The position numbers and the translations under genes were made by a program. Shown here one piece after another: positions 3,516-32,323 of a DNA stretch of 64,000 nt. The notes below the pieces were generated by a model. It saw only the letters and a program-made list of their open reading frames with translations, did not search any database and was not told the DNA's origin. This DNA is from an uncultured Desulfobacteraceae bacterium (lineage in GTDB: Bacteria; Desulfobacterota; DSM-4660; Desulfatiglandales; B25-G16): assembly GCA_964549945.1 (NCBI GenBank), contig CAZJXD010000001.1:84346-148345 (forward strand). The letters run 5' to 3'. Position 1 is the first letter of the stretch. Every line of letters starts with the position of its first letter.

Positions 3516-3606
3516 TTTGATCCCTCCTCGTTATGGTTTGCGGTCCGTTTAGAATGAAAGGTTGTTCCTTTCCCCTCTTGAAAAGTTCGACATGATGATT
3601 ACCCGC

Positions 3607-3936
3607 CTATTCCGGGTTCCATGGGTGAATCTGGTAATCCTTATCGAAACAGACAGCCATTCCTTCCGGTTCAGATCGCAGCACTTTCCCGGTTACTTTA
3701 ATCAGGGCATGTTTCCATTCATCTTTCAGGGCCTTAAGCTTATCGAGCGGGAGAACTAAATCTATTTTGACCGGCGTACTCTCAGGGAGGGGTTTTGTGG
3801 TGTGGAAGTATGCGCCTCCTGCACAAACGTTTTCTGTCAGGAGTCGGATGAGTTCTTTCTCTCGCTTCTTGAACAGAGGTTCGATTTTTGCTGGAATGTG
3901 GAGATCGAATCTTTCTAGCTTTCTTCTCTCTTTCAT
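3607..3936 (-). CDS. PilZ domain protein (putative c-di-GMP receptor)
   Basis: The ORF is 109 aa. It has an N-terminal RRKLER (RxxxR) and a downstream ENVCAGG, which is D/NxSxxG-like with Ser replaced by Cys. Spacing and size match single-domain PilZ proteins. Confidence 0.65.
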   Translation of the reverse strand: MKERRKLERFDLHIPAKIEPLFKKREKELIRLLTENVCAGGAYFHTTKPLPESTPVKIDLVLPLDKLKALKDEWKHALIKVTGKVLRSEPEGMAVCFDKDYQIHPWNPE

Positions 3937-3970
3937 GAGATGGAATAGTATTGGGAGATCGAGCTGATTT

Positions 3971-4003
3971 ACAATACGTAGATAGTATGATTTTCCTACG
4001 TAT
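3971..4003 (-). promoter_or_regulatory. Conserved 33-bp box, copy A (35 nt upstream of the PilZ ATG)
   Basis: The box acaatacgtagatagtatgattttcctacgtat matches 12084-12115 at 30 positions with one 1-nt gap. It contains an 8-bp inverted repeat, ATACGTAG (3974-3981) / CTACGTAT (3996-4003). Confidence 0.45.
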
Positions 4004-4067
4004 ATTTAGAATGGAATTATCCAAAAAAGTATTAGTAATGTTTCATCAGGGAGGCTTTTATAGGAGG

Positions 4068-4748
4068 CTATAAATTCTTGACAGCCCATAAGGATGCCTG
4101 GAGGCGGTTGGGCACATTGATCTTTTTAAAGATATTATAGATATGGGTCCTAACCGTGTTAGCGCTGATAAAGAGCTCATCGGCAATCTGCTCGTTTGTA
4201 GCCCCGGCAGCTGCCATGGACAGTATCTCTGTTTCCCGTGGTGTGAGTATACGAGCTTCTTTCTTCATAACGATATCCTTATCTTTGATGGCCAGGATGG
4301 TTTTTGACAGTATTCGCCTGGAAGCCCACAGTTGTCCATTAAAGATAACAGTAATGCCCTTGGGGAAAATGTGAAGGGGGTCATGCTCGTAAAAGAATCC
4401 TCGTACGCCTTTTTTTAATGTTTTTTCCTCTATTCCATGTCTGTGACTTATATTGAATAAGGCAATGTAGTGCTCCTTTAAAATGGTTTTTGCATTCGAT
4501 TCAAGCTCGGATAGATAGTTCTCAAGTTTTTTTTCCAGACAATCAAGGAGGATCAAGGCGGGTTTGGATATTTTCCTTTTATCTCCGAGAGGAATACGGC
4601 GTGCATTTTTCCTGGCCGTACATGTTGCCCCGGTCTCCTGGTGTAAGAAAAATGCCATGAGCTCATTTTGTAAGCTCCTGGGACCAATGATATAGATTAG
4701 CCTATCAGGTAACTGCTTTCGGTCTTTAGGAGAATCGTTCGTGCTCAT
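4068..4748 (-). CDS. LuxR-family transcriptional regulator, CsgD/VpsT-like (receiver-like N-domain + LuxR HTH)
   Basis: The ORF is 226 aa. The C-terminal LTPRETEILSMAAAGATNEQIADELFISANTVRTHIYNIFKKINVPNR is a LuxR/FixJ-type HTH. The N-terminal ~140 aa are receiver-like. NGQLWASRR lies at aa 138-146, just before the linker. Confidence 0.8.
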   Translation of the reverse strand: MSTNDSPKDRKQLPDRLIYIIGPRSLQNELMAFFLHQETGATCTARKNARRIPLGDKRKISKPALILLDCLEKKLENYLSELESNAKTILKEHYIALFNISHRHGIEEKTLKKGVRGFFYEHDPLHIFPKGITVIFNGQLWASRRILSKTILAIKDKDIVMKKEARILTPRETEILSMAAAGATNEQIADELFISANTVRTHIYNIFKKINVPNRLQASLWAVKNL

Positions 4749-4785: not shown

Positions 4786-4953
4786 TTAGAATTTGAGCTC
4801 AACATCGAGGACATAGATAACTCTCTTATACTCATAGATGGGCAGATTGGAGTTGCTCTTTATTCTGCTCACCTGAGCCATAAATGACAGATTTTTTGAT
4901 TGTTCCCAGATAAGCCCTGAAGAGCCTGTGAAGGTATCATCCTCTCGGTCCAT
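4786..4953 (-). pseudogene. C-terminal remnant of a TPR/beta-barrel outer-membrane protein (paralog of 12152..13726)
   Basis: My translation of this 55-codon frame is below the track cutoff: MDREDDTFTGSSGLIWEQSKNLSFMAQVSRIKSNSNLPIYEYKRVIYVLDVELKF*. It has an alternating beta-strand pattern and a terminal aromatic residue. It is comparable to the C-terminus of the 524-aa protein (...FSYSYTHSDSNVSSNGIDPYKFKKNVYGLMIMALF). It lies in a different frame from the TPR ORF that ends at 4937. Confidence 0.55.
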
Positions 4954-5407
4954 GTTCAATCGCCTCCAGATTCTTTCCTTCTTTTTTGAGGGCCAAGCCT
5001 TTTAAAAAAGCTATCCTCGCGGGGTTGATCTTCTGCCTCTCGGCCAGCCCTATCCACCATTTTGCCTCTTGGAGGCTTCCCTGCTGGATCAGGATATCCG
5101 CAAGTTCAACCACCGCATCCTTGATGCGAGGGGTGAGTGTTATCGCATCCTTGAGATTTGCGATTGCCTCGGGGTAATCTATAACCTGTTTATAGGCCAG
5201 GCCTAGAAAGAAGGCAGCTACGGAGGATGTTGGATCCTCCTCGCGCGCCCTTTTCAGTAACTCGATGGCTTCCTCGAAGTTCTCCTGCATGTATTGGGGA
5301 ATTCCCTGCTCGAGATAGTTGGATGTCTGACAGAGGGCATGCTCTTGGGAAAGAAGCGCAATATCGAATGTAAAAAAACAGCCTAGTAAAACTGCAACTC
5401 TATCCAT
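4937..5407 (-). CDS. Exported TPR-repeat protein; likely the surviving N-terminal part of a decayed TPR/beta-barrel OMP gene
   Basis: The ORF is 156 aa. NYLEQGIPQYMQENFEEAIELLKRAREEDPTSSVAAFFLGLAYKQVIDYPEAIANLKDAI aligns by eye with NHFVDGVEAYESGSYQEAINSLKKAIELEPGNLEFQYYLGLTYSAMGKYEEALEVFGKIV of 12152..13726. It ends prematurely where the paralog continues for ~370 more residues. Confidence 0.6.
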   Translation of the reverse strand: MDRVAVLLGCFFTFDIALLSQEHALCQTSNYLEQGIPQYMQENFEEAIELLKRAREEDPTSSVAAFFLGLAYKQVIDYPEAIANLKDAITLTPRIKDAVVELADILIQQGSLQEAKWWIGLAERQKINPARIAFLKGLALKKEGKNLEAIEHGPRG

Positions 5408-5659: not shown

Positions 5660-6418
5660 ATGGACATGATTAACCCCGCGACCCCCCATATCTCGAAACC
5701 ATTTTCAGTGTTCATCCCTGTCTATAATGAACAAGATATTCTTATCCCGAACACCGAGAGGTTGATCTCCCATCTTGACCGATATGGGGTTAACTATGAG
5801 ATCATTATAGGAAGCAATGGCTCAAATGACCGCACCCCTGATCTAGGACAGATGCTGTCCGATGAGCATACCCGGATAAGGTTCTTCCATATCAAAGAAA
5901 AGGGAGTGGGAGATGCCTTTAAGCAGGGGATTCGGATGGCACGGTATGATGCGGTGGTGTCCCTGGACATGGATCTTTCCATCAACCTGGGCTTTATAGG
6001 TGAGGCCCTTGAATTTCTGGATGCCCATCATGACATAGTCATAGGCTCCAAGAAGGTGGGAGATGAAAGACGGTCGGTCTTCAGGAGGCTTGGAAGCGAT
6101 CTCTTTATCCTGGCAGCCAGGGTCTTACTCGGCCTTCCCTTCGAGGACTACTCCATTGGCGCCAAGGCGTATAAGAGGGATTTGGTGCTCGAATATGGCC
6201 ACAGGATTGACAAGGGGACCTCTTATGTGCTCAACATAGTGTACCTTGCATTCAGGAATAAAAGGAAGGTTATCGAGATACCTGTGAGGTGCGAGGATTA
6301 CAGGGAGAGCAGGTTCAACATCATCTACGAGGGTCTCTACCGCTTCTATCACCTCTTCAGGCTCTGGTATGTGGAAAGGATTGCTTCTAGCCCTTCTTCA
6401 CCCTTACCAGTGCAGTGA
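5660..6418 (+). CDS. Family 2 glycosyltransferase (soluble, DPM1/GtrB-like)
   Basis: The ORF is 252 aa. It has FSVFIPVYNEQDIL near the N-terminus and VVSLDMDLS (DxD-like), with no TM segments. The 3' end overlaps the convergent giant gene by 32 bp. Confidence 0.8.
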   Translation: MDMINPATPHISKPFSVFIPVYNEQDILIPNTERLISHLDRYGVNYEIIIGSNGSNDRTPDLGQMLSDEHTRIRFFHIKEKGVGDAFKQGIRMARYDAVVSLDMDLSINLGFIGEALEFLDAHHDIVIGSKKVGDERRSVFRRLGSDLFILAARVLLGLPFEDYSIGAKAYKRDLVLEYGHRIDKGTSYVLNIVYLAFRNKRKVIEIPVRCEDYRESRFNIIYEGLYRFYHLFRLWYVERIASSPSSPLPVQ

Positions 6419-9400
6419 TGATAACAGCTACGATGCTTAAAAGAATCGCAATAATAGCAATCGCTCCAGGCTTTGCATTAGAGGAGTTCGCGATCTCGAT
6501 AAAACACCCCGCACTCCCTGACACCCTGGTTCCTCCATCGGATGAGGTGGAGTTGAAGCTCACGCTCAGTCCGGGAGGCGGCGGCGGCTGCTCGGTGCTC
6601 TCGGGAGTTGTGAAGGCCTCGCTCGCAGACCTCATCGAGGTGGCCGTAAAATGGCCTCCCTCGTTGTCCTTGGGAACGAGCATGACGATGTCGGCAGCTG
6701 CCTCTACTTTGATCCAGTAAGCCGTGCCGGGCTGAAGCGTGGCACCAGAGGCGCGCTGTTCGTAGCCGTTGTTCGCACCGGTCCCGGTATAGTCCCACAC
6801 ATACTGCTGGGTGAGGGTGTTGTTGGCGCTCGTGATCCAGTAGGAATTAGGCCCATCGCTCACCGCGATGTTGTCGAGCTCGATGCTTGTGGCGGGCCAG
6901 GGCAATGCCACCATGTTCCACCCCGGTGAAAGGGGCACCTCTGTGTAGTCGCCGTCTGGTGCAGGCTGACCGGAGAAGGTGATGGTATCAGTAGAGGTAC
7001 TGATCACCCAGAACCCCCTGCCCGGATATACCTCAAGGTCTGCAAAGGAGGGATCATCCATCTCGATGTAGGAGGAGGTGTCCGGATCCCACGCGAACAC
7101 CCGCCAGATCCCCTTGTCATAGATACCGAGGGCGCTCTCCATGCTCTCCCTTAACGATGAGCCGCTCGCCAGAGTTACCGGCACGGTGAACATCTGATAG
7201 TCGGTCGCCTCCCCTGTGCCCCCGGGGAGCGCGAACTCGTGGGCAATGTCTGTGATGAACTCGTAGGCCCCTATATCGTAACCTGAGCCCTTAGGCCTCG
7301 CGTAGCCGGCGTAGTCTACAGTGACCGGGTCAGTTGAATCAGTAGGGATGGCGTCAATGCAAGGAGAACCAGATTGCAGCTCGTAGCTCCCGTAGAGGGG
7401 ATCCTGGGAGATGTTGCCATTGATACCAGTTTGATTTGAGGTATCACCTCCATACTGGCCGGTGGTGTTGCCGTACACGTCGTTGTATTCAATGGTAGGG
7501 CTGCCGCCAGTGTTGTTGATGCCGTAACCTTCGAAGTTGGTGATGGTGTTATATTTGACATCAGGTGTCGCCCCTTCTCCGTGACAATAGATGCCGTCTT
7601 CCGTGCCAGCGTCGATTGTATTATGGTAGATACCAGGGCTTGCCAATTCATCCATGGCGCTCATGGTGATGCCACTTGCACCGGAGTAGATGATGTTATT
7701 GGTGATTTGAGGGCTTGCCTCTTGGGTGTAGGCCCAGATGTCTATCCCAGACCACTGATTGCCGTAGATCTCATTTCTTTGTATGGCCGGGCTACAACTC
7801 TCTACCCCGATTCCATAATATTCATGGGTGTAAATCTGATTCCGTGCAACCGTCACCCCTGAGGCGCCCCTTACCCATACTCCAATAGAGTAATAACCGG
7901 TACCGTTCTCGTGTATTTGGTTGTCCTTGATAGTAGCATCGCTCGCCGTTGATTCAATCCAGAGGCCGGTACCGTTGTCGTGAACGTTGCAGTTTTTGAC
8001 GGATGCGCCGGTTCCCTCGATGAGAAGGCCTGCTGTGGGGAAATTCGCGAGCTCGAGGTTGTAAATCCTCACGCTATCAGCATCCTGATCTATGCCGATA
8101 CCGTATCCCCACATTGAGGCATCCGTTCCATCAAGCACCGGGCTGCTCCCGCTCTCACCGATAATGGTCACGTTATCCTGAGTGATGGTGAGGGAATCGT
8201 TCGCCTCGCCGTTTGCCACGTTGTAAGTGCCGAGAGCGAGGTTCACGCTGTAAGATCCGGCGGAGCCCCCGTTAATTCGATACAGTGCGTGATGGAGCGT
8301 CTTCCAGGGAGTATCGGAGGTCCCATTGCCGGTGAGGTCATTTCCCGATAAGATATTTATATAATAAGTGCCCGGACTATAGGAAGGGTAGTCAGCGTCA
8401 TTGCTGGGATCGGTACTCAAGCCCACCTCTTCACCGTCATAGTAACCGTCGTTATCTGAGTCGGAGTCGTTGGGATCGGTGCCCTTTTGGTACTCCTGAA
8501 GATCTGTTAGGCCATCAGAGTCACTATCGGCAGTACCATCATGGCTGGTTAGATCACCGAAGTAGGTGATCTCCCAGGTATCAGGCATGCCATCGCCGTC
8601 AGAATCTAAAGCCACGAACGTGGCCGTAACGCTCTTGTTGGAGTCCATGGTGATGGTTTCAGGGTTGGTGGAGCCTGTCAGATCGCCGCTCCACCCGCTG
8701 AACGTCCAGCCCGAATCTGCTGCCGCTGTCAATGTTACCACTGTGCCTTGATCAAACGTGCTGCCGGATGGATTAAGCGTCACAGTTCCTTGACCGACAG
8801 TGGTCACTGTCAGGCCATACTGTGTGGGAGTTACCACGGACAATACATATTTCCATATCTCAGCACCCTCTGCGTTATTCCTCGTCCCCACATAAAGCCT
8901 GTTGTCATATACTGCCATGCCGTTTGCGAACTGGTTATTCTCAGGATCCCCAAAACCACTGGTGTTTACCTGGCTCCAGGTCGATCCATCATATTCCCAT
9001 ACCCCGGCGCCTGCGCTAGAGTTATACGTAGCCATATAAAGCTTGGCGTTATAATTGGCCATGCCTGCGGCAGCGGTGGTAGCCGAGCCCCAAGGGGGTG
9101 TTGCTGTGATATTGGTCCAGGTCGATCCATCATATTCCCATACCTCAGCCGCCCCACTGGAGTTTTCGGTTCCCACATAAAGCTTGCCGTTATACACGGC
9201 CATGCTCCTGGCAGCATAGTTAGCCGAGCCCCAAGGGGGTGTTGTCGTTATATTGGTCCAGGTGGACCCGTCATATTCCCATACTTGAGCGCCTGTGGAA
9301 GAGTTATATATTCCCACATAAAGCTTGCCGTTATACACGGCCATGCAATAGGCGCGATAATTGTATCCATCCCCGAAGCCAACGGTGTTCACTTGAGTCC

Positions 9401-11054
9401 AGGTTGTCCCACCATCATATCTCCAGACCCCAACCCCGGAAGCGTTGCCTACTCCGGCATAAAGCTTGTCGTTATACACGGCCATAGAATCGGCAGCGTA
9501 GTTAGATGAACTCCCAAATCCTTCGGAGTTTACCTGGTTCCAGCTTGACCCGTATTCCCATACCTCAGTGCCTGTGCTTGAGTATGTTCCCACATAAAGC
9601 TTGTCGTTATACACGGCCATGCTGTTGACGCCGGCATTATTTGCGTCCCAACTGGGCGTTACCTTAGTCCAGGCCGACCCGTATTCCCATACCTCAGCGC
9701 CCTCGAATATTCCCACATAAAGCTTGTCGTTATACACGGCCATCCGGTAGGCGGACTTACTATTTGCATCGAAGTCGCCCTCGTTTACCTGGGTCCAGAA
9801 TGCGCCTATATACTCATCAGCCCCGATGTCGTAATATTTATATGTGCCTGCACCGGTATTAGTGGTATCGGGATCGTCGTATCTTTCGTCCCCTTCAAAG
9901 TCATCAGCAGGGGCACTGCTACTTGTACCTGCATCGATGCAAGCAGAACCCGCCTGGAGATGGTGATAGTTGTCACCCAGGGCAAAAAGAGGGTCGGCGT
10001 CGATATTGCCGCCACCATCGGTACCGAACGTAGTAACCCACCCCGTACCACTGCTGCCACAACCCTCGATGTCGCTATAGCTGAAGGTCGGTGGCGAGGT
10101 GCCGTAGTTATATATCTCTGGATAGCTTAATGCAGTGTCTCCCCAGAAGATGGAGTTGGTTACTGTCGTGGCGCAATAAGAATTGTACATCCCCCCGCCA
10201 TAACCGTATAGCGTTGAATTTTCGGTGAAGGTGCAGTTCATCAGGGAAGGGGAGAGTGATTCCTCGTTATACATCCCACCGCCACCTCCGCTGTCTCCCG
10301 AGTTCCCGCTGAAGATACAGTTAGTTATTGTCGGGGACGAAGAAAGATTATACATCCCGCCACCGCTTAGTGCAGAATTATCTTTAAATGTGCAATTAGT
10401 CACCGTCGGCGAGGCGTTAACGTAGTTGCACATCCCACCGCCGCTTCCGCTCGCGGTATTATTTTTGAACATGCAATTAGTCACCGTCGGCGAGGCGGGG
10501 TACATGGAGCCGTAGTTGCACATTCCAGCACCGCAACAATTAGATGAGTTTCCGGTGAAGATGCAGTTTGCCACCGTGGGGGAGACGCCATCGTTTAACA
10601 TGCCGCCACCTTTGTCATCTGGAGCCGAAGTTCCATTTGCATTTCCGCCGGTGATGGTAAAGCCGTCAATGGTGGCATCGTCAGCGCCCGTAACCACATG
10701 CAAGACGCTGTTTTGACCGTCAATGGTGGTGACATTGTTAGCCCAGTCCCGCTGATTCAGATCCGTCTCGGTCCCGGCAAACCCACCATAGAGGTCCACC
10801 CAAGATTTCAAGGTGATGCTCTCAGTATAGGTGCCTGCTTTGACCCAGATTTGCTTGCCGGTTGTGGCAGCACTGAGTGCAGCTGCGATTGTTGTGTAGG
10901 CATCACTCCACGAGAGACCATTATTTGCACCAGTGGCGTTCTTATCTACATATATCGGAGTGATGACCACTGCCTGGCAAATAGGTGATGAAATGAGAGT
11001 GAACAGGAAGGCTATAAAGATAAGAAATTTAATATGGCGTATTTGTGCTTTCAT
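6387..11054 (-). CDS. 1,555-aa secreted mosaic surface protein (beta-helix / 7-blade propeller / B-repeat / TSP3-like / beta-helix / C-terminal TM tail)
   Basis: It has a signal peptide MKAQIRHIKFLIFIAFLFTLISSPICQA. Residues ~30-390 are a parallel beta-helix with about six Pmp-like repeats (SPTVTNCxFxxNS...GGGMxN). Residues ~418-737 hold seven MAVYNxKLYVG...EVWEYDGSTW repeats. Residues ~746-813 (YGLTVTTVGQGTVTLNP...FSGWSGDL) are an InlB B-repeat/Listeria-Bacteroides-type domain. Residues ~816-885 are Asp-rich DxDxDG calcium-binding-like repeats. Residues ~895-1200 are a second NosD-like beta-helix. The protein ends ...SGSAGCFIEIANSSNAKPGAIAIIAILLSIVAVIITALVRVKKG. Confidence 0.9.
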   Translation of the reverse strand: MKAQIRHIKFLIFIAFLFTLISSPICQAVVITPIYVDKNATGANNGLSWSDAYTTIAAALSAATTGKQIWVKAGTYTESITLKSWVDLYGGFAGTETDLNQRDWANNVTTIDGQNSVLHVVTGADDATIDGFTITGGNANGTSAPDDKGGGMLNDGVSPTVANCIFTGNSSNCCGAGMCNYGSMYPASPTVTNCMFKNNTASGSGGGMCNYVNASPTVTNCTFKDNSALSGGGMYNLSSSPTITNCIFSGNSGDSGGGGGMYNEESLSPSLMNCTFTENSTLYGYGGGMYNSYCATTVTNSIFWGDTALSYPEIYNYGTSPPTFSYSDIEGCGSSGTGWVTTFGTDGGGNIDADPLFALGDNYHHLQAGSACIDAGTSSSAPADDFEGDERYDDPDTTNTGAGTYKYYDIGADEYIGAFWTQVNEGDFDANSKSAYRMAVYNDKLYVGIFEGAEVWEYGSAWTKVTPSWDANNAGVNSMAVYNDKLYVGTYSSTGTEVWEYGSSWNQVNSEGFGSSSNYAADSMAVYNDKLYAGVGNASGVGVWRYDGGTTWTQVNTVGFGDGYNYRAYCMAVYNGKLYVGIYNSSTGAQVWEYDGSTWTNITTTPPWGSANYAARSMAVYNGKLYVGTENSSGAAEVWEYDGSTWTNITATPPWGSATTAAAGMANYNAKLYMATYNSSAGAGVWEYDGSTWSQVNTSGFGDPENNQFANGMAVYDNRLYVGTRNNAEGAEIWKYVLSVVTPTQYGLTVTTVGQGTVTLNPSGSTFDQGTVVTLTAAADSGWTFSGWSGDLTGSTNPETITMDSNKSVTATFVALDSDGDGMPDTWEITYFGDLTSHDGTADSDSDGLTDLQEYQKGTDPNDSDSDNDGYYDGEEVGLSTDPSNDADYPSYSPGTYYINILSGNDLTGNGTSDTPWKTLHHALYRINGGSAGSYSVNLALGTYNVANGEANDSLTITQDNVTIIGESGSSPVLDGTDASMWGYGIGIDQDADSVRIYNLELANFPTAGLLIEGTGASVKNCNVHDNGTGLWIESTASDATIKDNQIHENGTGYYSIGVWVRGASGVTVARNQIYTHEYYGIGVESCSPAIQRNEIYGNQWSGIDIWAYTQEASPQITNNIIYSGASGITMSAMDELASPGIYHNTIDAGTEDGIYCHGEGATPDVKYNTITNFEGYGINNTGGSPTIEYNDVYGNTTGQYGGDTSNQTGINGNISQDPLYGSYELQSGSPCIDAIPTDSTDPVTVDYAGYARPKGSGYDIGAYEFITDIAHEFALPGGTGEATDYQMFTVPVTLASGSSLRESMESALGIYDKGIWRVFAWDPDTSSYIEMDDPSFADLEVYPGRGFWVISTSTDTITFSGQPAPDGDYTEVPLSPGWNMVALPWPATSIELDNIAVSDGPNSYWITSANNTLTQQYVWDYTGTGANNGYEQRASGATLQPGTAYWIKVEAAADIVMLVPKDNEGGHFTATSMRSASEAFTTPESTEQPPPPPGLSVSFNSTSSDGGTRVSGSAGCFIEIANSSNAKPGAIAIIAILLSIVAVIITALVRVKKG
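8844..9803 (-). repeat. Seven tandem coding repeats (period 123-144 bp) encoding the propeller blades
   Basis: The DNA word cataaagcttg(c/t)cgttatacacggccat recurs at 9176, 9317, 9458, 9593 and 9716, with degenerate copies near 8892 and 9035. At protein level there are 7 MAVYN-type blades. Confidence 0.8.
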
Positions 11055-11105
11055 CCTAATCCCCTTACCCTAAGCGAAAAAAAGGCGTATTTGCATACTT
11101 ATTGC

Positions 11106-11981
11106 TTACCCTGACGGCGGTTCTGGCGGACCCGGCAGTGTGGTCGTTGTCGTTGTTGTTGCTTCGGGCGTTGTGCTGGTCGTGGTCGTCGTGGTCGTTG
11201 TGCTGGTCGTGGTAGTAGTGGTCGTTGTGGTCGTCGTCGTGGTCGTCGTGGTAGAGGTTGTGGTGGTTGCTTCAGAGGTCGGAGTTTCTTCAGTCGTGGT
11301 CTCCTCTGTGGTCCCAAGTTCGGTTGTTACAGGGGCAGTTGGCACCTCCTCGAGCCCTTCCTGGAGCTCTTTGAGTTGATCCTCGGTCATGAGGATGGGC
11401 TTCGAGGGCGCCTCCCCTCCTATAATATCAGTCACAAGATCCTTGGTGAGCACGATATATTCCTCGGGTCTCAAAGCATTGGCCACCTCAATAACGTCTT
11501 CAAAACAGACTACCTTGGTGATGGTATCCGACTGGACCCACACCAGGAACAGGGTGCCCCGGACGCCCACAACTGCCGTTGGTGTTCCCACCTTGAAGCC
11601 CCTTTCCCTGAATCCGATTAGTTTCTTAGCGAAGACCCGAAGCTTTCCCATGGCCACTCTGAAAAATGCGCTCCTCTTTTTCTCCTTGGGGAGAAATGAG
11701 AAGTCATCCAGGGAGAGATCCGCATTTTTCCCCATGCTCAGGATACTGCCGTCTAGGAGCTCGATCCTCACGGCTGAATTATCGCCAGTCCTCACCCTGT
11801 CGTGCAGGTTCAAAGGAATGCCCACATACGCGGTAATGGGGCTGGGAACTTCCTCCCGGAATATCTGGGCTTCGCCCTTGAGCTTGGAGATATTTCCGAC
11901 CAGCTGAGCGGCCTGGGCGGAAAGGGGCAGTACTATTGCCAAAAAGAGAATCCCGATTATGAAATATATTGCTCTTTTCAT
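11106..11981 (-). CDS. Secreted FecR-domain protein with poly-Thr C-terminal tail
   Basis: The track ORF is 11106..12050. The second Met (MKRAIYFIIGILFLAIVLPLSAQA) gives a clean signal peptide and has an AAAGGGA purine tract upstream, so I prefer 11981 as the start. The FecR core is KVGTPTAVVGVRGTLFLVWV. The tail is TTTTSTTTTTTTTTTTTTTTTSTTTTTTTTSTT...LPGPPEPPSG. Confidence 0.8.
   Translation of the reverse strand: MKRAIYFIIGILFLAIVLPLSAQAAQLVGNISKLKGEAQIFREEVPSPITAYVGIPLNLHDRVRTGDNSAVRIELLDGSILSMGKNADLSLDDFSFLPKEKKRSAFFRVAMGKLRVFAKKLIGFRERGFKVGTPTAVVGVRGTLFLVWVQSDTITKVVCFEDVIEVANALRPEEYIVLTKDLVTDIIGGEAPSKPILMTEDQLKELQEGLEEVPTAPVTTELGTTEETTTEETPTSEATTTTSTTTTTTTTTTTTTTTTSTTTTTTTTSTTPEATTTTTTTLPGPPEPPSG
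11139..11335 (-). repeat. Low-complexity (ACN)n tract encoding the Thr-rich linker
   Basis: The plus strand reads ggtcgttgtcgttgttgttgc...gtggtcgtcgtggtcgtcgtggt. All three reverse and forward frames give homopolymer-like peptides: poly-T in the real frame, and poly-V and R/P-rich in the spurious ORFs 11140..11379 and 11099..11317. Confidence 0.85.
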
Positions 11982-12083
11982 GGAACAATCCCTTTTCTCG
12001 CTTTGGGCATTTGAGCTCACCAAAAAACTAGCCTGGCTTCTCTTTGCCATAAGTTGAAATAATAATGTAGGTTACAAGAAAAA

Positions 12084-12115
12084 GACAATACGCATATAGT
12101 ATGATTTTCCTCGTA
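12084..12115 (-). promoter_or_regulatory. Conserved box, copy B (upstream of the FecR-2/giant-protein operon)
   Basis: The box acaatacgcatatagtatgattttcctcgtat lies 34 nt from the 12050 ATG and ~103 nt from the preferred 11981 start. It keeps the outer AATACG/CGTATT inverted repeat. Confidence 0.45.
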
Positions 12116-12151
12116 TTATAGTATTAAGACTTTAAACACCTTTTATCTTTT

Positions 12152-13726
12152 CTAGAACAGAGCCATGATCATAAGGCCGTATACGTTCTTTTTGAATTTA
12201 TAGGGGTCTATGCCGTTGCTCGACACATTGGAGTCGCTGTGGGTATAGCTGTAAGAAAATGCGAGTTGAAAAATATCAGAGAGCGGCTTGGCAATAGAGA
12301 GTGCGAGGATATATTTCTTATCCTCACGTTCCCCGGTGAGTGTGTAAAATGGATTGCTGTGGAATGCGGTTTTCTCATAGGTCAGCGAGATGTCACCCCG
12401 GGTTTTCCACCAAGGAAGGGCCGATGCGATGCCCAGGAGGAGCTGATGGTATTTATACGAGTAGATGCTCTGATCGGCATCCTCTGAACCATACTTGTAT
12501 CCCGCCCTTGGATAGATTTCCTTGTTTGAAAATTGATAATACTGAACGATTCCAATAGAAAATTGATCGGCATCGGAGGTGACGTGATCGAGGTAATCCA
12601 TGTCCTGGTATGCAAAGGTGATTTCGCTCTTCAGGTTATGCGGTTCAACGATGGTGAGCGTGGGGCTGAGGGCGTGCATCTTGAGCTTCTTGTCCGAGTC
12701 GCTTCCGAAGGTTAAATAAAACCCCATATCCTGCCCGTTTTCCTTTCCCCCGGTACGATAGTAGCTGAATTCATAAGGGAGCCTGAAATAGAAGGGATGG
12801 CGGTTATAGTTGAGGTAGAGGTGGGGGATATGCCCGATGATATTGCTATCTACAAGATCCCTGTACCCGGTACAGTACAGGGAATATCCCGCTCCCAATT
12901 CAAGGTCCTTTCTGTTGAGCAGTTTGTATCCGCCCCTTATGATGAGGGTCTGGAAGAAATCGGCCTCATCCAGGGTCTCGCCCGTTGGCGAGACAATTGC
13001 GGCCTGCTCCAGGGCCTTCTGGAGTACATTGTCGTCATAGGACAAGGTAAATGAGCCCGAAAGATACCATGGCCTTCGCGCTTTCTTGGCCCCCCTCGCG
13101 TTCACGATCGCCTGCCGGGCATTCTGGGCAACGGAGGTGTCGGGATTCACCTCAATGGACTTGGCGAACATCTCCTCTGCCTTATCAAAGGCCTCGGCCT
13201 CAAAATACGCCGCACCGATGTTGTAGTAAATGAGCTGGAGCATCTTTGGCTCCAGATCCTTTGCCTTATTGAAATTCTGTATGGCGAGATCATACTTCTT
13301 GATTTTCTGAAAGGCATAGCCCTTCTCGAGGTAGACCCGGACGTCTTTTGGGGCAATCTCTTCCACAAGGGAGAGGGTATCGATGGCCTTCTGATACTGC
13401 TTTTGCTTTGAATAGACGGCTGCGATCTCGAAATATGCCTTCCGAAATGTAACGGGTTCTCTCTCCACGATCTTCCCGAACACCTCGAGTGCTTCCTCAT
13501 ACTTCCCCATCGCGCTGTAGGTGAGGCCGAGGTAGTATTGAAACTCGAGGTTTCCAGGCTCAAGCTCAATGGCCTTTTTAAGGGAATTTATGGCCTCCTG
13601 ATAAGAACCGCTTTCATAGGCCTCAACCCCGTCCACGAAGTGATTCATGGCGTTTTGCTGGGCTGAGGCGGTAACTGGAAGGAGAAGAAATGAAAAAAGG
13701 ATGAAGATAAAGGCAAGGTTTCTCAT
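12152..13726 (-). CDS. Outer-membrane protein: N-terminal TPR domain + C-terminal beta-barrel
   Basis: The ORF is 524 aa with a signal peptide MRNLAFIFILFSFLLLPVTASA. About 200 aa of TPR repeats are followed by ~310 aa of alternating hydrophobic/aromatic strands rich in Y/G/D. It ends in ...YGLMIMALF, a terminal Phe typical of OMP barrels. Confidence 0.8.
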   Translation of the reverse strand: MRNLAFIFILFSFLLLPVTASAQQNAMNHFVDGVEAYESGSYQEAINSLKKAIELEPGNLEFQYYLGLTYSAMGKYEEALEVFGKIVEREPVTFRKAYFEIAAVYSKQKQYQKAIDTLSLVEEIAPKDVRVYLEKGYAFQKIKKYDLAIQNFNKAKDLEPKMLQLIYYNIGAAYFEAEAFDKAEEMFAKSIEVNPDTSVAQNARQAIVNARGAKKARRPWYLSGSFTLSYDDNVLQKALEQAAIVSPTGETLDEADFFQTLIIRGGYKLLNRKDLELGAGYSLYCTGYRDLVDSNIIGHIPHLYLNYNRHPFYFRLPYEFSYYRTGGKENGQDMGFYLTFGSDSDKKLKMHALSPTLTIVEPHNLKSEITFAYQDMDYLDHVTSDADQFSIGIVQYYQFSNKEIYPRAGYKYGSEDADQSIYSYKYHQLLLGIASALPWWKTRGDISLTYEKTAFHSNPFYTLTGEREDKKYILALSIAKPLSDIFQLAFSYSYTHSDSNVSSNGIDPYKFKKNVYGLMIMALF

Positions 13727-13836
13727 TTGTAGCTCCCGCTTGCTGGGCCATGGATTTTCAATAGATTTTTAAAAATACTATTGGAACAATTTACCTGTCA
13801 AGCAATAAAATCGCCGCGTATAAATATAGTACTATT

Positions 13837-15204
13837 CTAATGAACAAAACCAGTAAAAAGCCTGATCTGGCGGATCAAGGAACTCGGGCTTCTATGCTTG
13901 AGACGCGATAGTATATAGGGGAGCCTCATGTAGTACGATAGGTAGGATCTGCGAACCACGTTATCCAGGAAAAGGGGATCGTGATCCGCGCAGTGAGGGG
14001 GAAAGCTCATATCGCCGTTATGCCAATCCTTTGATGGCTGCACCTTAAAACTGATACCGGTACCCGGGTATGGTGTGGCCATATGAAAGGACGCGTAGGT
14101 TGGATTGAGCTCCTTGGCGAAGTTGAGCGTTTCTTCCATTTCCGAGGGCAGCTCCCCTGGAAAACCGAGCATGAAGAAACAGGCGGTTTCTATGCCCGCT
14201 TCCCTCGTGAGGCGGATTCCCCGCCGTATTTCCTCGGGATTGATCCTCTTGTTTGTGCCATCCAATACTCTTGGTGACCCGGATTCAACCCCGAAATGGA
14301 TGAGCCTGCACCCTGCCCGTTTCATATGCTCCAGAAGCTCAGGATCCACCGCATCAGCCCTTGTCTGGCAGCACCAATAAAAGGGAAAGCTTCGGTTGAT
14401 AAGCCCAGCGTATATCTCCATGGCATGTGACCTGTTGGCGGTGAACTCCAGATCTATGAAGTATCCGTAACATGGCCCGGCAATCGAAGTCGCCCTCTCG
14501 ATTTCCGCCATGACATGTTCGGTGGGCTTCATGCGAACTCCTTTTGGGTACATTACCTTCAGACAGAAGCTACACTCATAGGGGCATCCCCTTGAGGCCT
14601 CAAACAGCAGAAAGGGCCTTCCCATCAGCTCATAGAAGTATCTGGAGGGATCGATCAGGTGAAATGAGGGAATGGGGAAATCCTTGAGGTTCGCAGGGCG
14701 TGGAGCGCTCGTGAAAAAGGGTTTGCCGTCTTTTCTGAATACCAGGCCGGGCACGGTACTCCAATCTTTCTGGGTTACCAGGGAGAGAAGTGTTTCCTCC
14801 GGCTCGCCTATTATCACTGCTCTGGCCTTGGTTTGGAGGAGCATTTCCCCGGGGAAGAGGGACCCGTGGGCGCCCATGATCAGCAGCTTTTCAGATGGAA
14901 GGGATCTTGCAAGTTCAACAAAATACCCAACCTCCAGATTCGGGCACTGCCATCTGTCCAAAGGGGAGGATGTGAGACCGATCCAATCGGATTCTCGGGC
15001 CAATCGAACTGCCTTTTCCCTCCATTTATGATCAACTCTGCCGTCCACAATGTGTACGTGAAGGCCCTCTTTTTCGAGAAGCGAAGCGCAAATCAAAAGG
15101 CTAAGCGGGGGCCAAGCCCGGTTGAAGCGTCGCCCCTTCTGACTGATTCTCCTACCCCAGCCGGGATTAATGAGCAGTATGTTTTTTAGGTTTGTTGAGT
15201 TCAT
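13837..15204 (-). CDS. B12-binding-domain radical SAM protein
   Basis: The ORF is 455 aa. The N-terminal ILLINPGWG...LLICASLLEKEGLHVHIVD is a Rossmann-like cobalamin-binding domain. ASRGCPYECSFC is the CxxxCxxC radical SAM cluster motif. Confidence 0.85.
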   Translation of the reverse strand: MNSTNLKNILLINPGWGRRISQKGRRFNRAWPPLSLLICASLLEKEGLHVHIVDGRVDHKWREKAVRLARESDWIGLTSSPLDRWQCPNLEVGYFVELARSLPSEKLLIMGAHGSLFPGEMLLQTKARAVIIGEPEETLLSLVTQKDWSTVPGLVFRKDGKPFFTSAPRPANLKDFPIPSFHLIDPSRYFYELMGRPFLLFEASRGCPYECSFCLKVMYPKGVRMKPTEHVMAEIERATSIAGPCYGYFIDLEFTANRSHAMEIYAGLINRSFPFYWCCQTRADAVDPELLEHMKRAGCRLIHFGVESGSPRVLDGTNKRINPEEIRRGIRLTREAGIETACFFMLGFPGELPSEMEETLNFAKELNPTYASFHMATPYPGTGISFKVQPSKDWHNGDMSFPPHCADHDPLFLDNVVRRSYLSYYMRLPYILSRLKHRSPSSLIRQIRLFTGFVH

Positions 15205-15219: not shown

Positions 15220-17886
15220 TTAAAGGTCTAATTCTTTTAACCTTTCCCTTGAATGCTCGGCCCAGGTATCTTCAGGAAAGTCTTCAATCACTTGGCGAAA
15301 AACACGAATGGCCTCTTCACGCCTTCCTAGTTTCAGATGACAAAGCCCTGTATGGTAGAGCACTTCCGGGAGTTTCCTGGTTTCCGGGTAGTCCCTAACC
15401 ATCTCTTCAAAAGATTCCAGGGCTTTTGCCCAGTTTTGTTCCTTGAAATAAGTGATGGCGAGGTGGAACGCGGTCTGGTCAACAATGGGCGACAGGGGAA
15501 AGGAGGTCATCCCCTTTTTAAAGACAGTGCGTGCCTTCTCAAACTCTCCGCTATCGAAGTACTTCATCCCTTTATTGTAGATCTGGGTGGGGTCATGGTG
15601 GTGTACTACCAGGATGGCAGATATGAGAATGCCGATAATGGCCAGGCTGATACCCCACAGCAATTGCCTTTTTTGCCGTAACCCCATTAAGCACACAATC
15701 GGCGAGGCATGGCTTAGCCGTGAGCTCAGGACACGGACAACGGATAACAAAGAACGGATAACAGCCGTGTTGCGGAAAGGCCTAATCCCCGCAAGAATAA
15801 TGAATATGCCGATTATGCTTAAGAGGGAGCCGAGGTAATTGGGAAGCGAAGGCCCAAAGTAGAGCCTTACCCTCTCACGTGTCGGGTAGATGAGCATGAA
15901 GGAGGGTGAGGCCAGATAGATTCGCTCCGCTCCGTCCACATGCCAGTTGGGATGATAGGAGATCCTCACGAGATGAGGGCGACCGATATAAGGGGTTTCA
16001 ATGACGATCTCTTCCGGGCCGACTATCTCCTTGATGTCGGTATTCTGGGCAATCGGGTTTCTTGTGTTATGAAGATCTAAAATCCCGCTCTCAGGGAGCT
16101 TCTCATAAAAAATCGAGCTAAATAGCCTGGCATCATCGGGTTCGAGTGTCTCCTTAAAGGCGAGGTGGGTTGTGAGATCACCCCTTCTGAACCACTCAAA
16201 GGCAATTCTCCGCCAGTTGCTCGTAATCACAAGGGGAGGCTCATGATCGAGCAGGGAGACATACCTGTCCGAATTTCCCCGCAGACGATACACGGTATAG
16301 GGAGGGAAGTCCTGTTCGTGGATCACCTCCGGTTCGTTCTCTATTGCCTTCCTTACCGTGTTGGTGGCGGCGATAAAGTGGCTCACATTGAACATTTTCA
16401 AATGCTCGAGCCCCCTTTTGAAGTTCAACCTGGAGTAGTTATACCTTGAAAGGGGGCAGGAGGGCCTCGGGGAGGTTTCGGACTGGAGGTAGAAGACAAA
16501 GGGCGAGGTAATGCTTGACTGGATGTAGAGCCCCTCCAGGGTGGATCTTCCGGAGAAGAGCGGGAGGCTCTCGAAGGCCCTCACAGAGCCGGCGGCCCTG
16601 TGAAGAAGACCATGCTCATATGCCACGCGGGGGTCTCGACAGGAGCCCTTGAGATAGATATTCACAGCGTGGAATTGCGGCCAGAGGCCTTTTGTCTCGA
16701 ACCCCGAGTAATCCCACTTTATCCATTGTGGGATGTAGGTTACGTGCAAATCAACCCACAGGACGACCAAGCACACCAAGAAGATCGGGATTAATTGACG
16801 GGCCTTCATCCACTGAGTCATTACTCCTATGCCAATAGCCCCCATAATGAGCAGAGTGAATTGAAGACAGGGCAAGAAGCGGATATCAACCAGATTTATC
16901 TCATATGCGATAAAGTAGAACGCAGCCGCCACGAGGATGGCGAACCACAGGTATGAAAAGGCCTTTCCCTGCTTAAGCCTTGCCTTGTTTCGCCTTAGCG
17001 CCGCTCCTATCACCAGGATGGTGCCTATCAGGGCGAATATGATCATGGGGAGGAGTATCACGGGGAAGACCTGGGAGATCCCATCGAGGGTCCAGACGAA
17101 ATTATAGGCAGTGGTGTACGGCGTGAACCAGAGGAGCTGAATGAGCCAGAAGCCAAGGAGAAAAAAGGTGAGGGCGTTCACCTTCAGGTAGTACCCCAGG
17201 TTTTTTAAAAAGCCTTGAGTGGTGAAGAGAAAAAAGCTCGGAGCGAGCACGGCAAAGATGAGGGTATATCCGTGAGAAAGCCCTATACCCGTCAGGATAA
17301 GGGCATTGATAAGGATGAATCTGTTTTCGCGAATGCCCCGGTAAAAGGAGCCTATATAGAGGACGAGCAGTGCGAAACCAAGGCTATAGGCGAACTCCCC
17401 GGAGAGGGTGCTCGGGATGTTGCCTCCCCACATGGAATTAGACTCCATAAAGAGAAAGGGAAGTGTAAAAGCAGCGCCTATGAGCCGAACCGGTGGTTGT
17501 TGGTCCAGGAGTTTTAAGCACTCATAGGTACACAAGGGAAGGAGGAAGGTGCCGAGCACTGTTACCAATTTGAAGGCGATCTCAAGGGGCATAAAGAGCT
17601 GAAGCAGGGCTATGAGGAGAAAGGGGAGCGGAAAGTAAAACTGGAACAGGGGAAAACCCGCATAGTTGCCTTGCATCCAGCCCATGAGCTTGCCCCTGGG
17701 AAGAAGGGTGTTGATCAGATACTCCGCAGCTGAATAGTGGGAGGGGGTATCCCCTCCTGTGGCGATAGTCTTGAGCAAGAGGTAGGCAGGTGGAAAGTAG
17801 CTCAGGAGAAAGCCATAGATTAAAGCAAAGACGATGAGGTGGGCGGCGATATCAAGCGCCCTTTCTTTTAAACTGGCATAAGACAA
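15220..17886 (-). CDS. 888-aa polytopic membrane protein with C-terminal TPR domain (GT-C-like / PTPS-related membrane protein family, tentative)
   Basis: It has more than 12 hydrophobic helices in the first ~390 aa, with GGDTPSHYSAAEYL in the first loop. A large soluble middle domain and another TM segment follow. The C-terminus is TPR-like: FEKARTVFKKGMTSFP...AFHLAITYFKEQNWAKALESFEEMVRDYP...YHTGLCHLKLGRREEAIRVFRQV. The family assignment is from recollection only. Confidence 0.7.
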   Translation of the reverse strand: MSYASLKERALDIAAHLIVFALIYGFLLSYFPPAYLLLKTIATGGDTPSHYSAAEYLINTLLPRGKLMGWMQGNYAGFPLFQFYFPLPFLLIALLQLFMPLEIAFKLVTVLGTFLLPLCTYECLKLLDQQPPVRLIGAAFTLPFLFMESNSMWGGNIPSTLSGEFAYSLGFALLVLYIGSFYRGIRENRFILINALILTGIGLSHGYTLIFAVLAPSFFLFTTQGFLKNLGYYLKVNALTFFLLGFWLIQLLWFTPYTTAYNFVWTLDGISQVFPVILLPMIIFALIGTILVIGAALRRNKARLKQGKAFSYLWFAILVAAAFYFIAYEINLVDIRFLPCLQFTLLIMGAIGIGVMTQWMKARQLIPIFLVCLVVLWVDLHVTYIPQWIKWDYSGFETKGLWPQFHAVNIYLKGSCRDPRVAYEHGLLHRAAGSVRAFESLPLFSGRSTLEGLYIQSSITSPFVFYLQSETSPRPSCPLSRYNYSRLNFKRGLEHLKMFNVSHFIAATNTVRKAIENEPEVIHEQDFPPYTVYRLRGNSDRYVSLLDHEPPLVITSNWRRIAFEWFRRGDLTTHLAFKETLEPDDARLFSSIFYEKLPESGILDLHNTRNPIAQNTDIKEIVGPEEIVIETPYIGRPHLVRISYHPNWHVDGAERIYLASPSFMLIYPTRERVRLYFGPSLPNYLGSLLSIIGIFIILAGIRPFRNTAVIRSLLSVVRVLSSRLSHASPIVCLMGLRQKRQLLWGISLAIIGILISAILVVHHHDPTQIYNKGMKYFDSGEFEKARTVFKKGMTSFPLSPIVDQTAFHLAITYFKEQNWAKALESFEEMVRDYPETRKLPEVLYHTGLCHLKLGRREEAIRVFRQVIEDFPEDTWAEHSRERLKELDL

Positions 17887-18667
17887 GGATCACCCCCGTA
17901 ACAATTGCAAGGCCAAGCCAAAAAGGCCTTGTGCGCCTAAACCAATTCTCTGCACTCACTATTCTCACAGCGCTATTGCCGACCTCGGTATAATGTGCAT
18001 TTCCTGAATCGTACTCCAGATAACAGAAGACAGGGTATGCAGCACCCACGAGGGCGGAGAAATTTGAGATTTCAAAAAGGAGCAATGCCTCTGCCCCCGG
18101 CTCAACAACAAGCTCCCTCCGAGGCACTGGCGTGGAGAGCTCTTCGGGAAGAACAAGGGTTGCAGTCGTTGTCCTCGATCTGGACCCCTTGTTCTTTACC
18201 GAGAATCGAAGGAGCCCATTTCTTGAGATTGACAAGGCTTTACCCAGACACTCCAGCGCTGAGTTGGCGCTACTCCCTATGGAGAACGATGAGCACGACA
18301 CAGCGGAGAAGGGGTGACGGTTGATGTCTTGAAAGGTGATACGCGTGATCAAGGGATAGGTGCCCGCCTTTGAAGGCGAAGGCATTTTCCGAAAAAAAAC
18401 CGTCGCGGATTCACCTTCTCTGAGCAGATCCTTTCCCTTGTGGCTGCTGCTTTTCCCTGAAAGCACGAGGTGAACTTGCACATTGCAGGCGGGCTCATCA
18501 CCTTTGTTTGTGGCGGTGACCTCAATCTCGGGTATGCCATCCGTCACCGTAACCGAGGTTCGAATTTCGATTTGAATAATCCCGGCGATAGCAGGAGCGG
18601 AGTGGAAGAGCATCAAGGCTGTAAAACACCATGACAAAATCGACTGTGCTGTGCGTTTGAGCGCCAT
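17852..18667 (-). CDS. Exported protein with two Ig/CARDB-like segments and C-terminal TM + basic tail
   Basis: The track ORF starts at 18718. The Met at 18667 (MALKRTAQSILSWCFTALMLFHSAPAIA) gives a signal peptide. VTATNKGDEPACNVQVHLV resembles a CARDB strand pattern. It ends PFWLGLAIVTGVILVLCQFKRKGA. It overlaps the next gene by 35 nt, which suggests translational coupling. Confidence 0.6.
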   Translation of the reverse strand: MALKRTAQSILSWCFTALMLFHSAPAIAGIIQIEIRTSVTVTDGIPEIEVTATNKGDEPACNVQVHLVLSGKSSSHKGKDLLREGESATVFFRKMPSPSKAGTYPLITRITFQDINRHPFSAVSCSSFSIGSSANSALECLGKALSISRNGLLRFSVKNKGSRSRTTTATLVLPEELSTPVPRRELVVEPGAEALLLFEISNFSALVGAAYPVFCYLEYDSGNAHYTEVGNSAVRIVSAENWFRRTRPFWLGLAIVTGVILVLCQFKRKGA

Positions 18668-18710
18668 ACCTGTTGCTCCATATCTTCTTGCTGTGATATT
18701 CGGTGAGTGC

Positions 18711-32319: not shown

Positions 32320-32323
32320 CCGA

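Follow-up and report, generated by a model that had tools for sequence, protein, structure and literature searches.

Type 11 secretion (T11SS) is the newest of the named secretion systems. Its outer-membrane proteins (OMPs) were defined as DUF560 barrels with N-terminal tetratricopeptide repeats (TPRs) and 14 strands, as against 16 in PgaA (PMC8406197), and its cargo follows a rule by which a variable N-terminus is joined to a conserved C-terminal targeting domain (PMC12282271). Cargo is known for only seven T11SS OMPs, all from one host-associated cluster, while nine other clusters, with organisms from water and soil, have none (PMC8406197, PMC12282271). The published DUF560 similarity network already contains Desulfobacterales proteins, in uncharacterised clusters. 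Another described element, the CFI-box-CTERM domain (NF041770), is a putative C-terminal sorting domain that stands alongside PEP-CTERM, MYXO-CTERM and GlyGly-CTERM; we know of no sorting enzyme for it. Here we analyse three adjacent genes in a 64,000-nt stretch of DNA from an uncultured Desulfobacteraceae bacterium (GenBank assembly GCA_964549945.1, contig CAZJXD010000001.1, positions 84,346 to 148,345; the whole stretch is called the window below). They encode a TPR-barrel OMP, a FecR-like protein and a giant mosaic surface protein, and we consider it somewhat probable that this trio is a three-component export/display system for large surface proteins, built on a divergent DUF560/SlipAM OMP.

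The three open reading frames (ORFs) follow one another on the minus strand: the OMP gene at 12152..13726 (524 aa), the FecR-like gene at 11106..12050 (314 aa) and the gene for the giant protein at 6387..11054 (1555 aa). The gap between the first two is 101 nt and that between the last two is 51 nt, in agreement with the first-pass annotation of the window, which had listed three consecutive minus-strand genes with 51 nt between the FecR and giant genes. That annotation, made from the sequence alone, had proposed a dedicated surface-export module. The core of the proposal stands, as the trio is conserved; missing from it were the C-terminal tag of the giant protein, the neighbouring glycosylation genes and the decay of a second gene pair, all described below. 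A promoter and terminator scan placed its highest-ranking sigma-70-like match (TTGACA-18-TATTTT, 13772..13801, minus strand) within the 110 nt that precede the OMP gene and found no terminator-like site between the trio genes; this evidence is only suggestive, since promoter sites are no more numerous here than in shuffled sequence.

The trio is syntenic in dozens of contigs. From homologues of the OMP (36–88% identity) we reached 10 independent contigs that, like the window, have the order OMP, FecR-like protein, large secreted protein, the last being counted wherever the contig continues. With the FecR-like protein as query, a metagenome scan yielded 80 loci, and the pooled and de-replicated set comprises 78 loci. 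A barrel OMP is encoded directly upstream of the FecR-like gene in 41 of the 42 loci that have at least 1.7 kb of upstream sequence, and an ORF bearing the conserved cargo domain (Cdom, see below) is found downstream in at least 25 of the 36 loci with at least 3 kb on that side, where giants running off the flank count as misses; both are raw counts, without phylogenetic correction. The association persists down to ~30% identity of the FecR-like protein and ~23% identity of the OMP, by which point the linker and the passengers are unrecognisable. With such breadth, chance or mere vertical linkage is unlikely as the cause of the synteny. Our confidence that the three genes act as one functional unit is much higher than our confidence that this unit serves export or display. 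The first-pass annotation could not say whether the three genes co-occur in any other genome, and the counts above answer this. A contig scan with the full OMP alignment was of less use: the patterns chosen were TPR motifs, and genuine relatives made up only ~5 of its 42 loci. Those of its proteins that have TPRs only and no related barrel (L012–L048) were reused as negative-control loci.

The closest relatives of the trio genes come from metagenome-assembled genomes (MAGs) of Desulfobacterales, Desulfatiglandales and Desulfatibacillaceae. Of the full-length OMP homologues examined, the most remote one (23% identity; L055 397-4416) is followed by an 813-aa protein that has no FecR domain, so that the partnership with FecR is not universal in the wider barrel family. 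Some loci carry small ORFs with a '23S rRNA intervening sequence protein' domain (PF05635; L050 11622-12063 and L001 1675-2151), one of which sits between the OMP and FecR-like genes; these ORFs may be mobile or selfish elements. Our literature search found no paper on CFI-box-CTERM or 'CFIATAA', none on FecR-domain proteins as partners of a DUF560 OMP and none describing the trio as a surface-export or display module. This agrees with the first-pass annotation, which had not recognised the arrangement as a described system.

The OMP consists of a signal peptide, a periplasmic TPR domain (residues ~24–216, ~6 TPR pairs; 13079..13657, minus strand) and a 14-strand beta-barrel (residues 217–524; 12155..13078, minus strand). 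Matches to TPR models are strong over residues ~20–210 (Pfam TPR_1 at 3.5e-32, and others), and the C-terminal ~310 aa end in MALF. The AlphaFold2 model, built on an alignment of 41 homologues (pLDDT 90.1), shows 12 TPR-type helices behind the signal peptide and then a barrel of 14 strands within residues 220–523, with a kink at 353–356 splitting the sixth. The model and the Pfam matches thus agree with the earlier description of ~200 aa of TPRs followed by a ~310-aa barrel with a terminal Phe, and supply the strand count.

The first-pass annotation had offered two families for such a plan, Slam/DUF560 proteins and exopolysaccharide (EPS) porins, and the data favour the first. PF04575 (SlipAM, the Slam/DUF560 barrel) was matched at E≤0.01 by 18 of the 41 full-length homologues (best 1e-8), and the TPR_Slam model PF24575 by 31 of 41 family members at the same threshold; the window's own PF24575 score of 20.8 bits is under the cut-off of 35.2. 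When orthologous barrels (36–68% identical) were taken alone, seven of eight scored 25–36 bits against the PF04575 gathering score of 22, in register with the profile. OMPs from a distant branch of the same cassette scored even over nearly the whole profile (positions ~35–288), with 28–55 bits for seven of eight. A barrel profile search of 1.84 billion representatives gave 3,610 relatives; among ten sampled remote barrel-only representatives, five pass PF04575 and two pass BBP2_2. Given these matches of its orthologues and of distant cassette OMPs, the window OMP is, as far as sequence can place it, a divergent member of the DUF560 family, and we hold the placement of its clade in DUF560 with much more confidence than the export or display function. 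Among known structures, the best Foldseek matches to the barrel alone are the 14-strand CymA and FadL, and no Slam structure surfaced in the Foldseek search of PDB; sequence searches of PDB with the barrel profile and with the FecR-like profile gave nothing at E≤1.

The second protein of the trio probably starts at Met24 (11981) and has a signal peptide, a FecR domain, a poly-Thr linker and the C-terminal sequence LPGPPEPPSG. The FecR domain is well supported (PF04773, E 5e-12, 46.5 bits vs gathering score 24), which together with the signal peptide bears out the earlier call of a secreted FecR-domain protein. Orthologues, in every case encoded between the OMP and cargo genes, are 47–90% identical. 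The poly-Thr tract (11139..11327, minus strand; ~65 residues, ~60% Thr) follows the FecR domain and is a putative target of O-glycosylation, as its composition and its correlation with an adjacent glycosyltransferase suggest. Across 68 complete FecR-like proteins, the chemistry of the linker varies: poly-Thr or TTTE repeats of up to ~240 aa, Gly/Pro-rich, or acidic. Whatever the linker type, L305, P306, P309 and P312 are kept in 85–96% of them and define the C-terminal LPxxPxxP motif (11109..11138, minus strand). A folded domain, a spacer and a terminal peptide are the anatomy of a tether or an adaptor, and the OMP TPR domain, being always co-encoded, would be the obvious receptor for the peptide. 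A disulfide between a cysteine of the FecR-like protein and that of the cargo GCF motif was considered and rejected, as Cys159 is not conserved across the family.

Two kinds of described FecR proteins invite comparison. Like FecR of the FecR/FecA/FecI system and like LipL45 and Lsa33 of Leptospira, the protein has a PF04773 domain with a TPTAVxGVRG core, and a functional pairing with an outer-membrane barrel is also shared; with LipL45 and Lsa33 it further shares the character of an envelope protein whose FecR domain is not an anti-sigma part. These two are its best NCBIfam matches, with scores far under the cut-offs (48 vs 350 for LipL45 and 43 vs 420 for Lsa33), and its disordered linker and LPxxPxxP end are specific to the family described here. 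Unlike FecR it has a cleavable signal peptide only, with no cytoplasmic anti-sigma domain and no transmembrane (TM) segment, and within 10 kb of the trio there is neither a gene for an extracytoplasmic function (ECF) sigma factor (sigma-70 r2/r4) nor one for a TonB-dependent receptor or transducer. In the co-occurrence tables of the T11SS literature, FecR appears only alongside Sigma70_r2/r4, the ECF sigma domains, so that those entries represent classical FecIR.

The third protein is a mosaic. From the N-terminus it has a type-I signal peptide, a beta-helix, seven ~46-aa YN(D/G)KLYVG...VWEY repeats and a Flg_new_2 domain; TSP3 calcium-binding repeats, a second beta-helix with a choice-of-anchor Q domain, a ~200-aa domain and a tail follow. 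We saw no autotransporter, type 1 or type 9 secretion signal in Pfam and NCBIfam scans, and in this the first-pass annotation was right. Its view that the protein has no recognisable C-terminal signal did not hold. Residues ~1267–1480 (6615..7256, minus strand) form a conserved, beta-rich domain, Cdom, that recurs in the downstream proteins of 26 metagenome loci, and behind it lies a sorting-type tail (6390..6587, minus strand) made of a PPPPPG linker (6570-6587), GCFI (6498-6509) and a TM helix followed by RVKKG (6390-6467). The protein thus ends in ...SGSAGCFIEIANSSNAKPG-AIAIIAILLSIVAVIITALV-RVKKG, that is, in GCFI, a TM helix and a basic tail, and the elements of the CFI signature (Gly-Cys-Phe-Ile, then a hydrophobic stretch and, at the very end of the protein, basic residues) are all present in ...SAGCFIEIANSSNAKPGAIAIIAILLSIVAVIITALVRVKKG. 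A lipoprotein nature of the giant was rejected, since there is no lipobox and the signal peptides are type I-like.

In other loci the cargo passengers vary (beta-helix, PKD, Laminin_G, Big_5 and others), and so does the length, from 635 to over 5,000 aa. What stays constant, even at ~30% FecR identity, is Cdom, the Pro linker and G-C-F-[I/V]. In the 1,018 ORFs of 37 unrelated TPR control loci there were no Cdom matches and no CFI motifs. The tag is related to the uncharacterised CFI-box-CTERM domain of NCBIfam. The orthologous cargo of L001 carries the full domain (93.9 bits), as does the cargo of L049, L069, L097 and P0125. With these the window protein shares the Gly-Cys-Phe-Ile start, the TM helix and the basic tail, and its choice-of-anchor Q domain is typical of proteins that swap C-terminal anchors. 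Unlike the full domain, its tail has no ATAAYGS...LRxFRD core, and NF041770 (cut-off 40 bits) gave no match at E≤10 to its last 61 or 289 residues.

Most cargo proteins of the cassette, again unlike CFI-box-CTERM proteins, end 5–12 residues past GCF[IV] and have no TM helix, and in sister lineages of the window the TM coding stretch decays behind a stop codon. The TM helix therefore looks dispensable, and Cdom with GCF[IV] looks like the constant tag. In the closest relative, L057, whose OMP is 88% identical, the giant gene has a TGA ten codons past GCFI, and AIALVAILLSIIAVLLALRVSKEK, a TM helix with a basic tail, is still encoded in frame behind it (L057 15899-15975 aligns with window 6390-6470); the fragments P0121-P0123 stop at the same place. 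Selenocysteine insertion or read-through at this TGA was judged unlikely: no Rfam match resembling a selenocysteine insertion sequence was found, the fold z-score is -0.5, the TM remnant lies in different frames in sister loci, and the stop codon of distant clades is TAG or TAA. The pattern looks like repeated loss of the TM anchor in different lineages, not like recoding. In one locus (L088 10911-16606) two consecutive cargo genes, for proteins of 1098 and 721 aa, follow a single OMP/FecR pair, and both proteins have Cdom and end in GNGCFID...; one machine may thus serve several cargo proteins.

The closest described counterparts of the cassette are the T11SS/Slam systems, such as Slam1/2 of Neisseria, NilB and HrpB of Xenorhabdus and HsmA of Acinetobacter. 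In both, one OMP combines periplasmic TPRs at its N-terminus with a barrel of 14 strands, and its gene adjoins that of the cargo; orthologues as well as distant members of the cassette OMP exceed the PF04575 gathering score. Variable passengers with a constant C-terminal tag mirror the T11SS cargo rule, in which a variable N-part precedes a conserved C-terminal domain, and unlipidated cargo is allowed there too, as in the case of hemophilin. Several features set the cassette apart. Its TPR domain is longer (~6 repeats), the window barrel lies below Pfam detection, and the cargo is 5–50 times larger, with a C-terminal domain that is not recognisably the 8-strand TbpBBD/lipoprotein-C barrel and with an extra G-C-F-[I/V] or CFI-box tail. 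The ever-present FecR-like partner with its LPxxPxxP motif, and in one clade the link to glycosylation, are further differences. The hosts are sediment Desulfobacterota and not host-associated Proteobacteria, whereas the T11SS literature covers Proteobacteria.

What the analysis establishes is the gene order, the family of the OMP clade, the topology of the barrel, the conserved motifs and the co-occurrence counts. If the trio is an export/display system, the transport direction and the binding partners that we infer would be as follows. Sec would carry all three proteins across the inner membrane, and the 14-strand barrel of the OMP would insert and leave the ~190-aa TPR domain on the periplasmic side. 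The giant would be recognised through the tag common to all cassette cargo (the ~200-aa beta-rich domain, the Pro linker and G-C-F-[I/V], extended in the window by the TM helix and the basic tail), the N-terminal passengers being wholly different from one cargo to another. The OMP would then bring the giant to the cell surface or retain it there. The FecR-like protein would act as an obligatory adaptor or tether: its FecR domain may bind a partner, either the cargo tag or the barrel, its disordered linker would bridge the distance, and its LPxxPxxP peptide would dock in the groove of a TPR domain, most likely the one carried by the OMP.

In the window's clade the trio is accompanied by an accessory module. 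Upstream of the trio, on the minus strand, are genes for a B12-binding radical-SAM enzyme (13837..15204, assigned from domain matches), which adjoins the trio in the poly-Thr clade, for a PTPS_related membrane glycosyltransferase of the GT-C type with a C-terminal TPR domain (15220..17886; PF10131 at 3e-37 plus TPR/YfiO) and for a CARDB-like secreted protein (17852..18718), which a domain match and related loci mark as a conserved member of the module. Downstream of the trio, on the plus strand, is a small glycosyltransferase of family 2 (GT2; 5660..6418, 252 aa, PF00535 at 1e-21) of the ArnC/Dpm1-like polyprenyl-phosphate sugar synthase type; its best NCBIfam matches are ArnC and dolichyl-P-hexose transferase, and it is kept in related loci. 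The first-pass annotation had passed over the GT-C, radical-SAM and GT2 genes. The PTPS_related module is adjacent in 10 of 11 loci with a Thr/Ser-rich linker vs two of nine others (Fisher p = 0.0045), and one of those two has a frameshifted poly-Thr gene. From this correlation and from what is known of the families, the poly-Thr spacer is probably O-glycosylated in the periplasm by the adjacent module. The GT2 would make a polyprenyl-P-sugar, the GT-C enzyme with its TPRs would transfer it, and the radical-SAM and CARDB proteins would complete the module. In some relatives (L003/L004, and L053 upstream) the CARDB and GT2 genes are separated by genes for a YdjC-type deacetylase and a GNAT acetyltransferase, which fits synthesis of a modified sugar. 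One cassette without the module, from a Desulfobacterales MAG (L001 1-9515), is divergent from an adjoining operon of type 2 secretion (T2SS) and pseudopilin genes (GspF, GspG-like, GspK, PilM/N).

Taken as a whole, the cassette could be an undescribed Desulfobacterota branch of type 11 secretion with a Cdom-Pro-GCF[I/V] address tag, whose last element would be the core of the CFI-box-CTERM domain, an obligatory periplasmic FecR partner that docks on the TPR domain and, in one clade, a mucin-like stalk into which the GT-C and GT2 enzymes convert the poly-Thr linker of that partner. We put this fuller picture forward tentatively, as a possibility on the doubtful side of even. There is a realistic chance that the trio is a distinct sub-type of secretion system.

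Beyond the trio, the window contains the rest of a degraded paralogous set on the minus strand. The first-pass annotation had counted the FecR/TPR-barrel pair twice within 14 kb. This is true only of the ancestral state, which is intact in L057; in the window the barrel is found only once, since most of the second one has been deleted. The remnant of the second OMP gene (4792..5407) was recognised by comparison with an intact 505-aa gene in L057 (17043..18560). A deletion of ~890 bp removed the coding sequence for residues 152–448 and left residues 1–151 (5407..4955) and the last ~56 residues of the barrel (4959..4792), so the ORF at 4937..5407 (156 aa, TPR only) is a pseudogene fragment. The rest of the set (2475..4748) consists of genes for a CsgD-like LuxR regulator (4068..4748), a PilZ protein (3607..3936) and a second FecR-domain protein (2475..3515), which is 31% identical to the first and whose gene is not adjacent to the OMP remnant. 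In L057 the intact TPR-barrel gene, a CsgD-like LuxR gene and a long FecR-Big_13 gene lie beyond the GT2 gene. The second FecR gene of the window stops matching the corresponding L057 gene (at least 555 aa, Big_13 included) after ~residue 330, the 3' end is non-homologous, and the window below position 2475 has low GC (0.44) and few ORFs, which together suggest a rearrangement or deletion at the 1-2475 edge of the locus. The duplication is real in the lineage and degraded in the window. The CsgD-like regulator and the PilZ protein nearby make a biofilm-type context, which we count in favour of a role in export or display of surface proteins.

A number of observations weigh against the reading of the trio as a DUF560-based export/display system. 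PF04575 gave no match to the window's own barrel (residues 216–524 alone) even at E≤10, in spite of the seven of eight orthologues that score, so that DUF560 membership of the window OMP rests on its orthologues; the only Pfam and NCBIfam matches of this barrel alone are noise (BBP2_2 at 0.062 and the PEP-CTERM-associated OMP model TIGR03016 at 0.006). Some relatives match BBP2_2 (PF10082) instead of PF04575, which places the clade at the edge of DUF560. Cdom has no Pfam or NCBIfam match and cannot be recognised as the 8-strand barrel that known T11SS cargo has: its AlphaFold2 model, with a pLDDT of 70 only, is beta-rich with ~13 short strands, and a Foldseek search of PDB with this model brought up neither TbpB nor hemophilin nor fHbp, with no match at an E-value below 0.019. 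The C-terminal TM anchor would keep the giant in the inner membrane unless cleaved, and we found no candidate enzyme for processing the tail. The raw co-occurrence counts belong here too, as does one locus that has the FecR-like gene and no OMP (L106/L107) and another, on an error-rich long-read contig, with no giant downstream (L053). Finally, to our knowledge the known T11SS cargo is far smaller, and none of it requires a FecR-like partner.

A rival reading is retention in place of translocation. The giant would then be exported by another route, for example by T2SS after processing at GCFI/TM in the manner of MYXO-CTERM, and the OMP and the FecR-like protein would only anchor it, the latter threading or docking at the barrel or the TPRs and holding the C-terminal domain of the cargo. 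The TM helix and basic tail of the giant, like the full CFI-box-CTERM in L001, L049, L069 and L097, resemble sortase-type signals that need separate processing, and in L001 the T2SS operon (GspF, pseudopilins, GspK, PilM/N) is directly upstream of the OMP gene and divergent from it. A 14-strand barrel is also narrow for proteins of 1500–5000 aa, and a long linker with a terminal docking peptide is what a tether would be expected to look like. We nevertheless consider retention alone unlikely. Most cargo ends 5–12 residues after GCF[IV] with no TM helix, so that a membrane-protease sorting step cannot be general; T2SS genes adjoin only one of the loci examined; and the DUF560 family has been found experimentally to be a translocator (PMC8406197, PMC12282271).

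Alternatively, the adjacent GT2, GT-C and radical-SAM enzymes could make a polymer that leaves the cell through the OMP as its porin, the FecR-like protein and the adhesin being merely co-regulated components of the matrix. TPRs followed by a barrel are indeed the plan of the EPS porins (PgaA, BcsC, PelB, AlgK/AlgE), the biofilm-type context fits, and in the window's clade the glycosyltransferase and radical-SAM genes are adjacent to the OMP gene and often divergent from it. The top Foldseek match of the whole OMP model in PDB is BcsC (E 7e-15), and PF04575 is known to catch some PgaA homologues as well (PMC8406197). The BcsC match, with a TM-score of 0.48, a root mean square deviation of 9.5 Å and 10% identity, is largely driven by the TPRs. 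The EPS-porin models likewise reach only the TPR region of the OMP, at E~1e-3 and far under their cut-offs (TIGR03939 PgaA, 16.7 bits vs 367; NF008520 BcsC, 17.7 vs 858), and in the Pfam and NCBIfam scans neither PgaA nor BcsC models matched the barrel, which has 14 strands and not 16–18. Scans of the large ORFs of the window and of related loci revealed no processive polysaccharide synthase, and no periplasmic polymer-modifying enzymes are present; the first-pass annotation had already noted the lack of a membrane-bound processive synthase, the only GT2 being the 252-aa enzyme of the ArnC/Dpm1 type. The conserved neighbours of the OMP gene are genes for proteins, not for polysaccharides: the trio occurs without the glycosylation module in seven of nine loci with non-Thr linkers, while the FecR-like and cargo genes never leave it. 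We rejected the OMP as an EPS porin because its barrel has too few strands and no similarity to theirs and because no synthase was found nearby, and export of a glycan or glycoconjugate by the trio is quite improbable. The third alternative, trans-envelope signalling of the FecA/FecR kind, in which the FecR-domain protein would sense an event at the OMP and relay it to the LuxR/CsgD-like and PilZ proteins that control adhesin expression, has in its favour the classical role of FecR domains in linking an outer-membrane protein to gene regulation, the LuxR-family and PilZ genes 1.6–3 kb downstream and the OMP2-LuxR-FecR2 order of the paralogous set in L057, but it is very improbable, given a FecR-like protein with a cleavable signal peptide and neither anti-sigma domain nor TM segment, the absence of an ECF sigma factor and a TonB-dependent transducer, the absence of regulators from most related loci, which keep the cargo gene, and the classical FecIR nature of FecR in the T11SS co-occurrence data.

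The remainder of the window carries genes for housekeeping and anaerobic metabolism (EF-G, DinB, Hdr/Mvh-like flavoproteins, ETF, acyl-CoA enzymes and TRAP transporters). A flavoprotein/FeS gene cluster on the minus strand (28375-33679) includes an MvhD (FlpD) fusion of the HdrA/Mvh type; such clusters are typical of the energy metabolism of Desulfobacterota and support the taxonomic placement. An exact direct repeat of 2,012 bp (46473-48484 and 49523-51534, spacing 3,050 bp) carries in each copy an identical gene for a 559-aa FAD_binding_2/Succ_DH_flav_C flavoprotein (46587..48266 and 49637..51316) and reflects either tandem duplication in the recent past or an error of assembly.

For an environmental branch of type 11 secretion, the cassette supplies a concrete cargo rule that can be tested, together with a conserved accessory protein, and it ties the orphan CFI-box-CTERM sorting domain to a candidate machinery. 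If the fuller picture of a type 11 branch put forward above is true, an environmental (non-cluster-1) T11SS would for the first time have a predicted cargo and accessory factor, a machinery could be named for CFI-box proteins, and a 14-strand barrel of the Slam type would be able to handle adhesins of 1,000–5,000 residues. This raises the puzzle of how so narrow a barrel is to be reconciled with beta-helix adhesins several thousand residues long. Giant surface proteins are likely to drive aggregation, the formation of filaments and consortia, and attachment to minerals in sulfate-reducing and syntrophic Desulfobacterota, and a defined export module would make these processes tractable; the Cdom-GCF[IV] tag could reveal the whole repertoire of surface adhesins of uncultured relatives from sequence alone.

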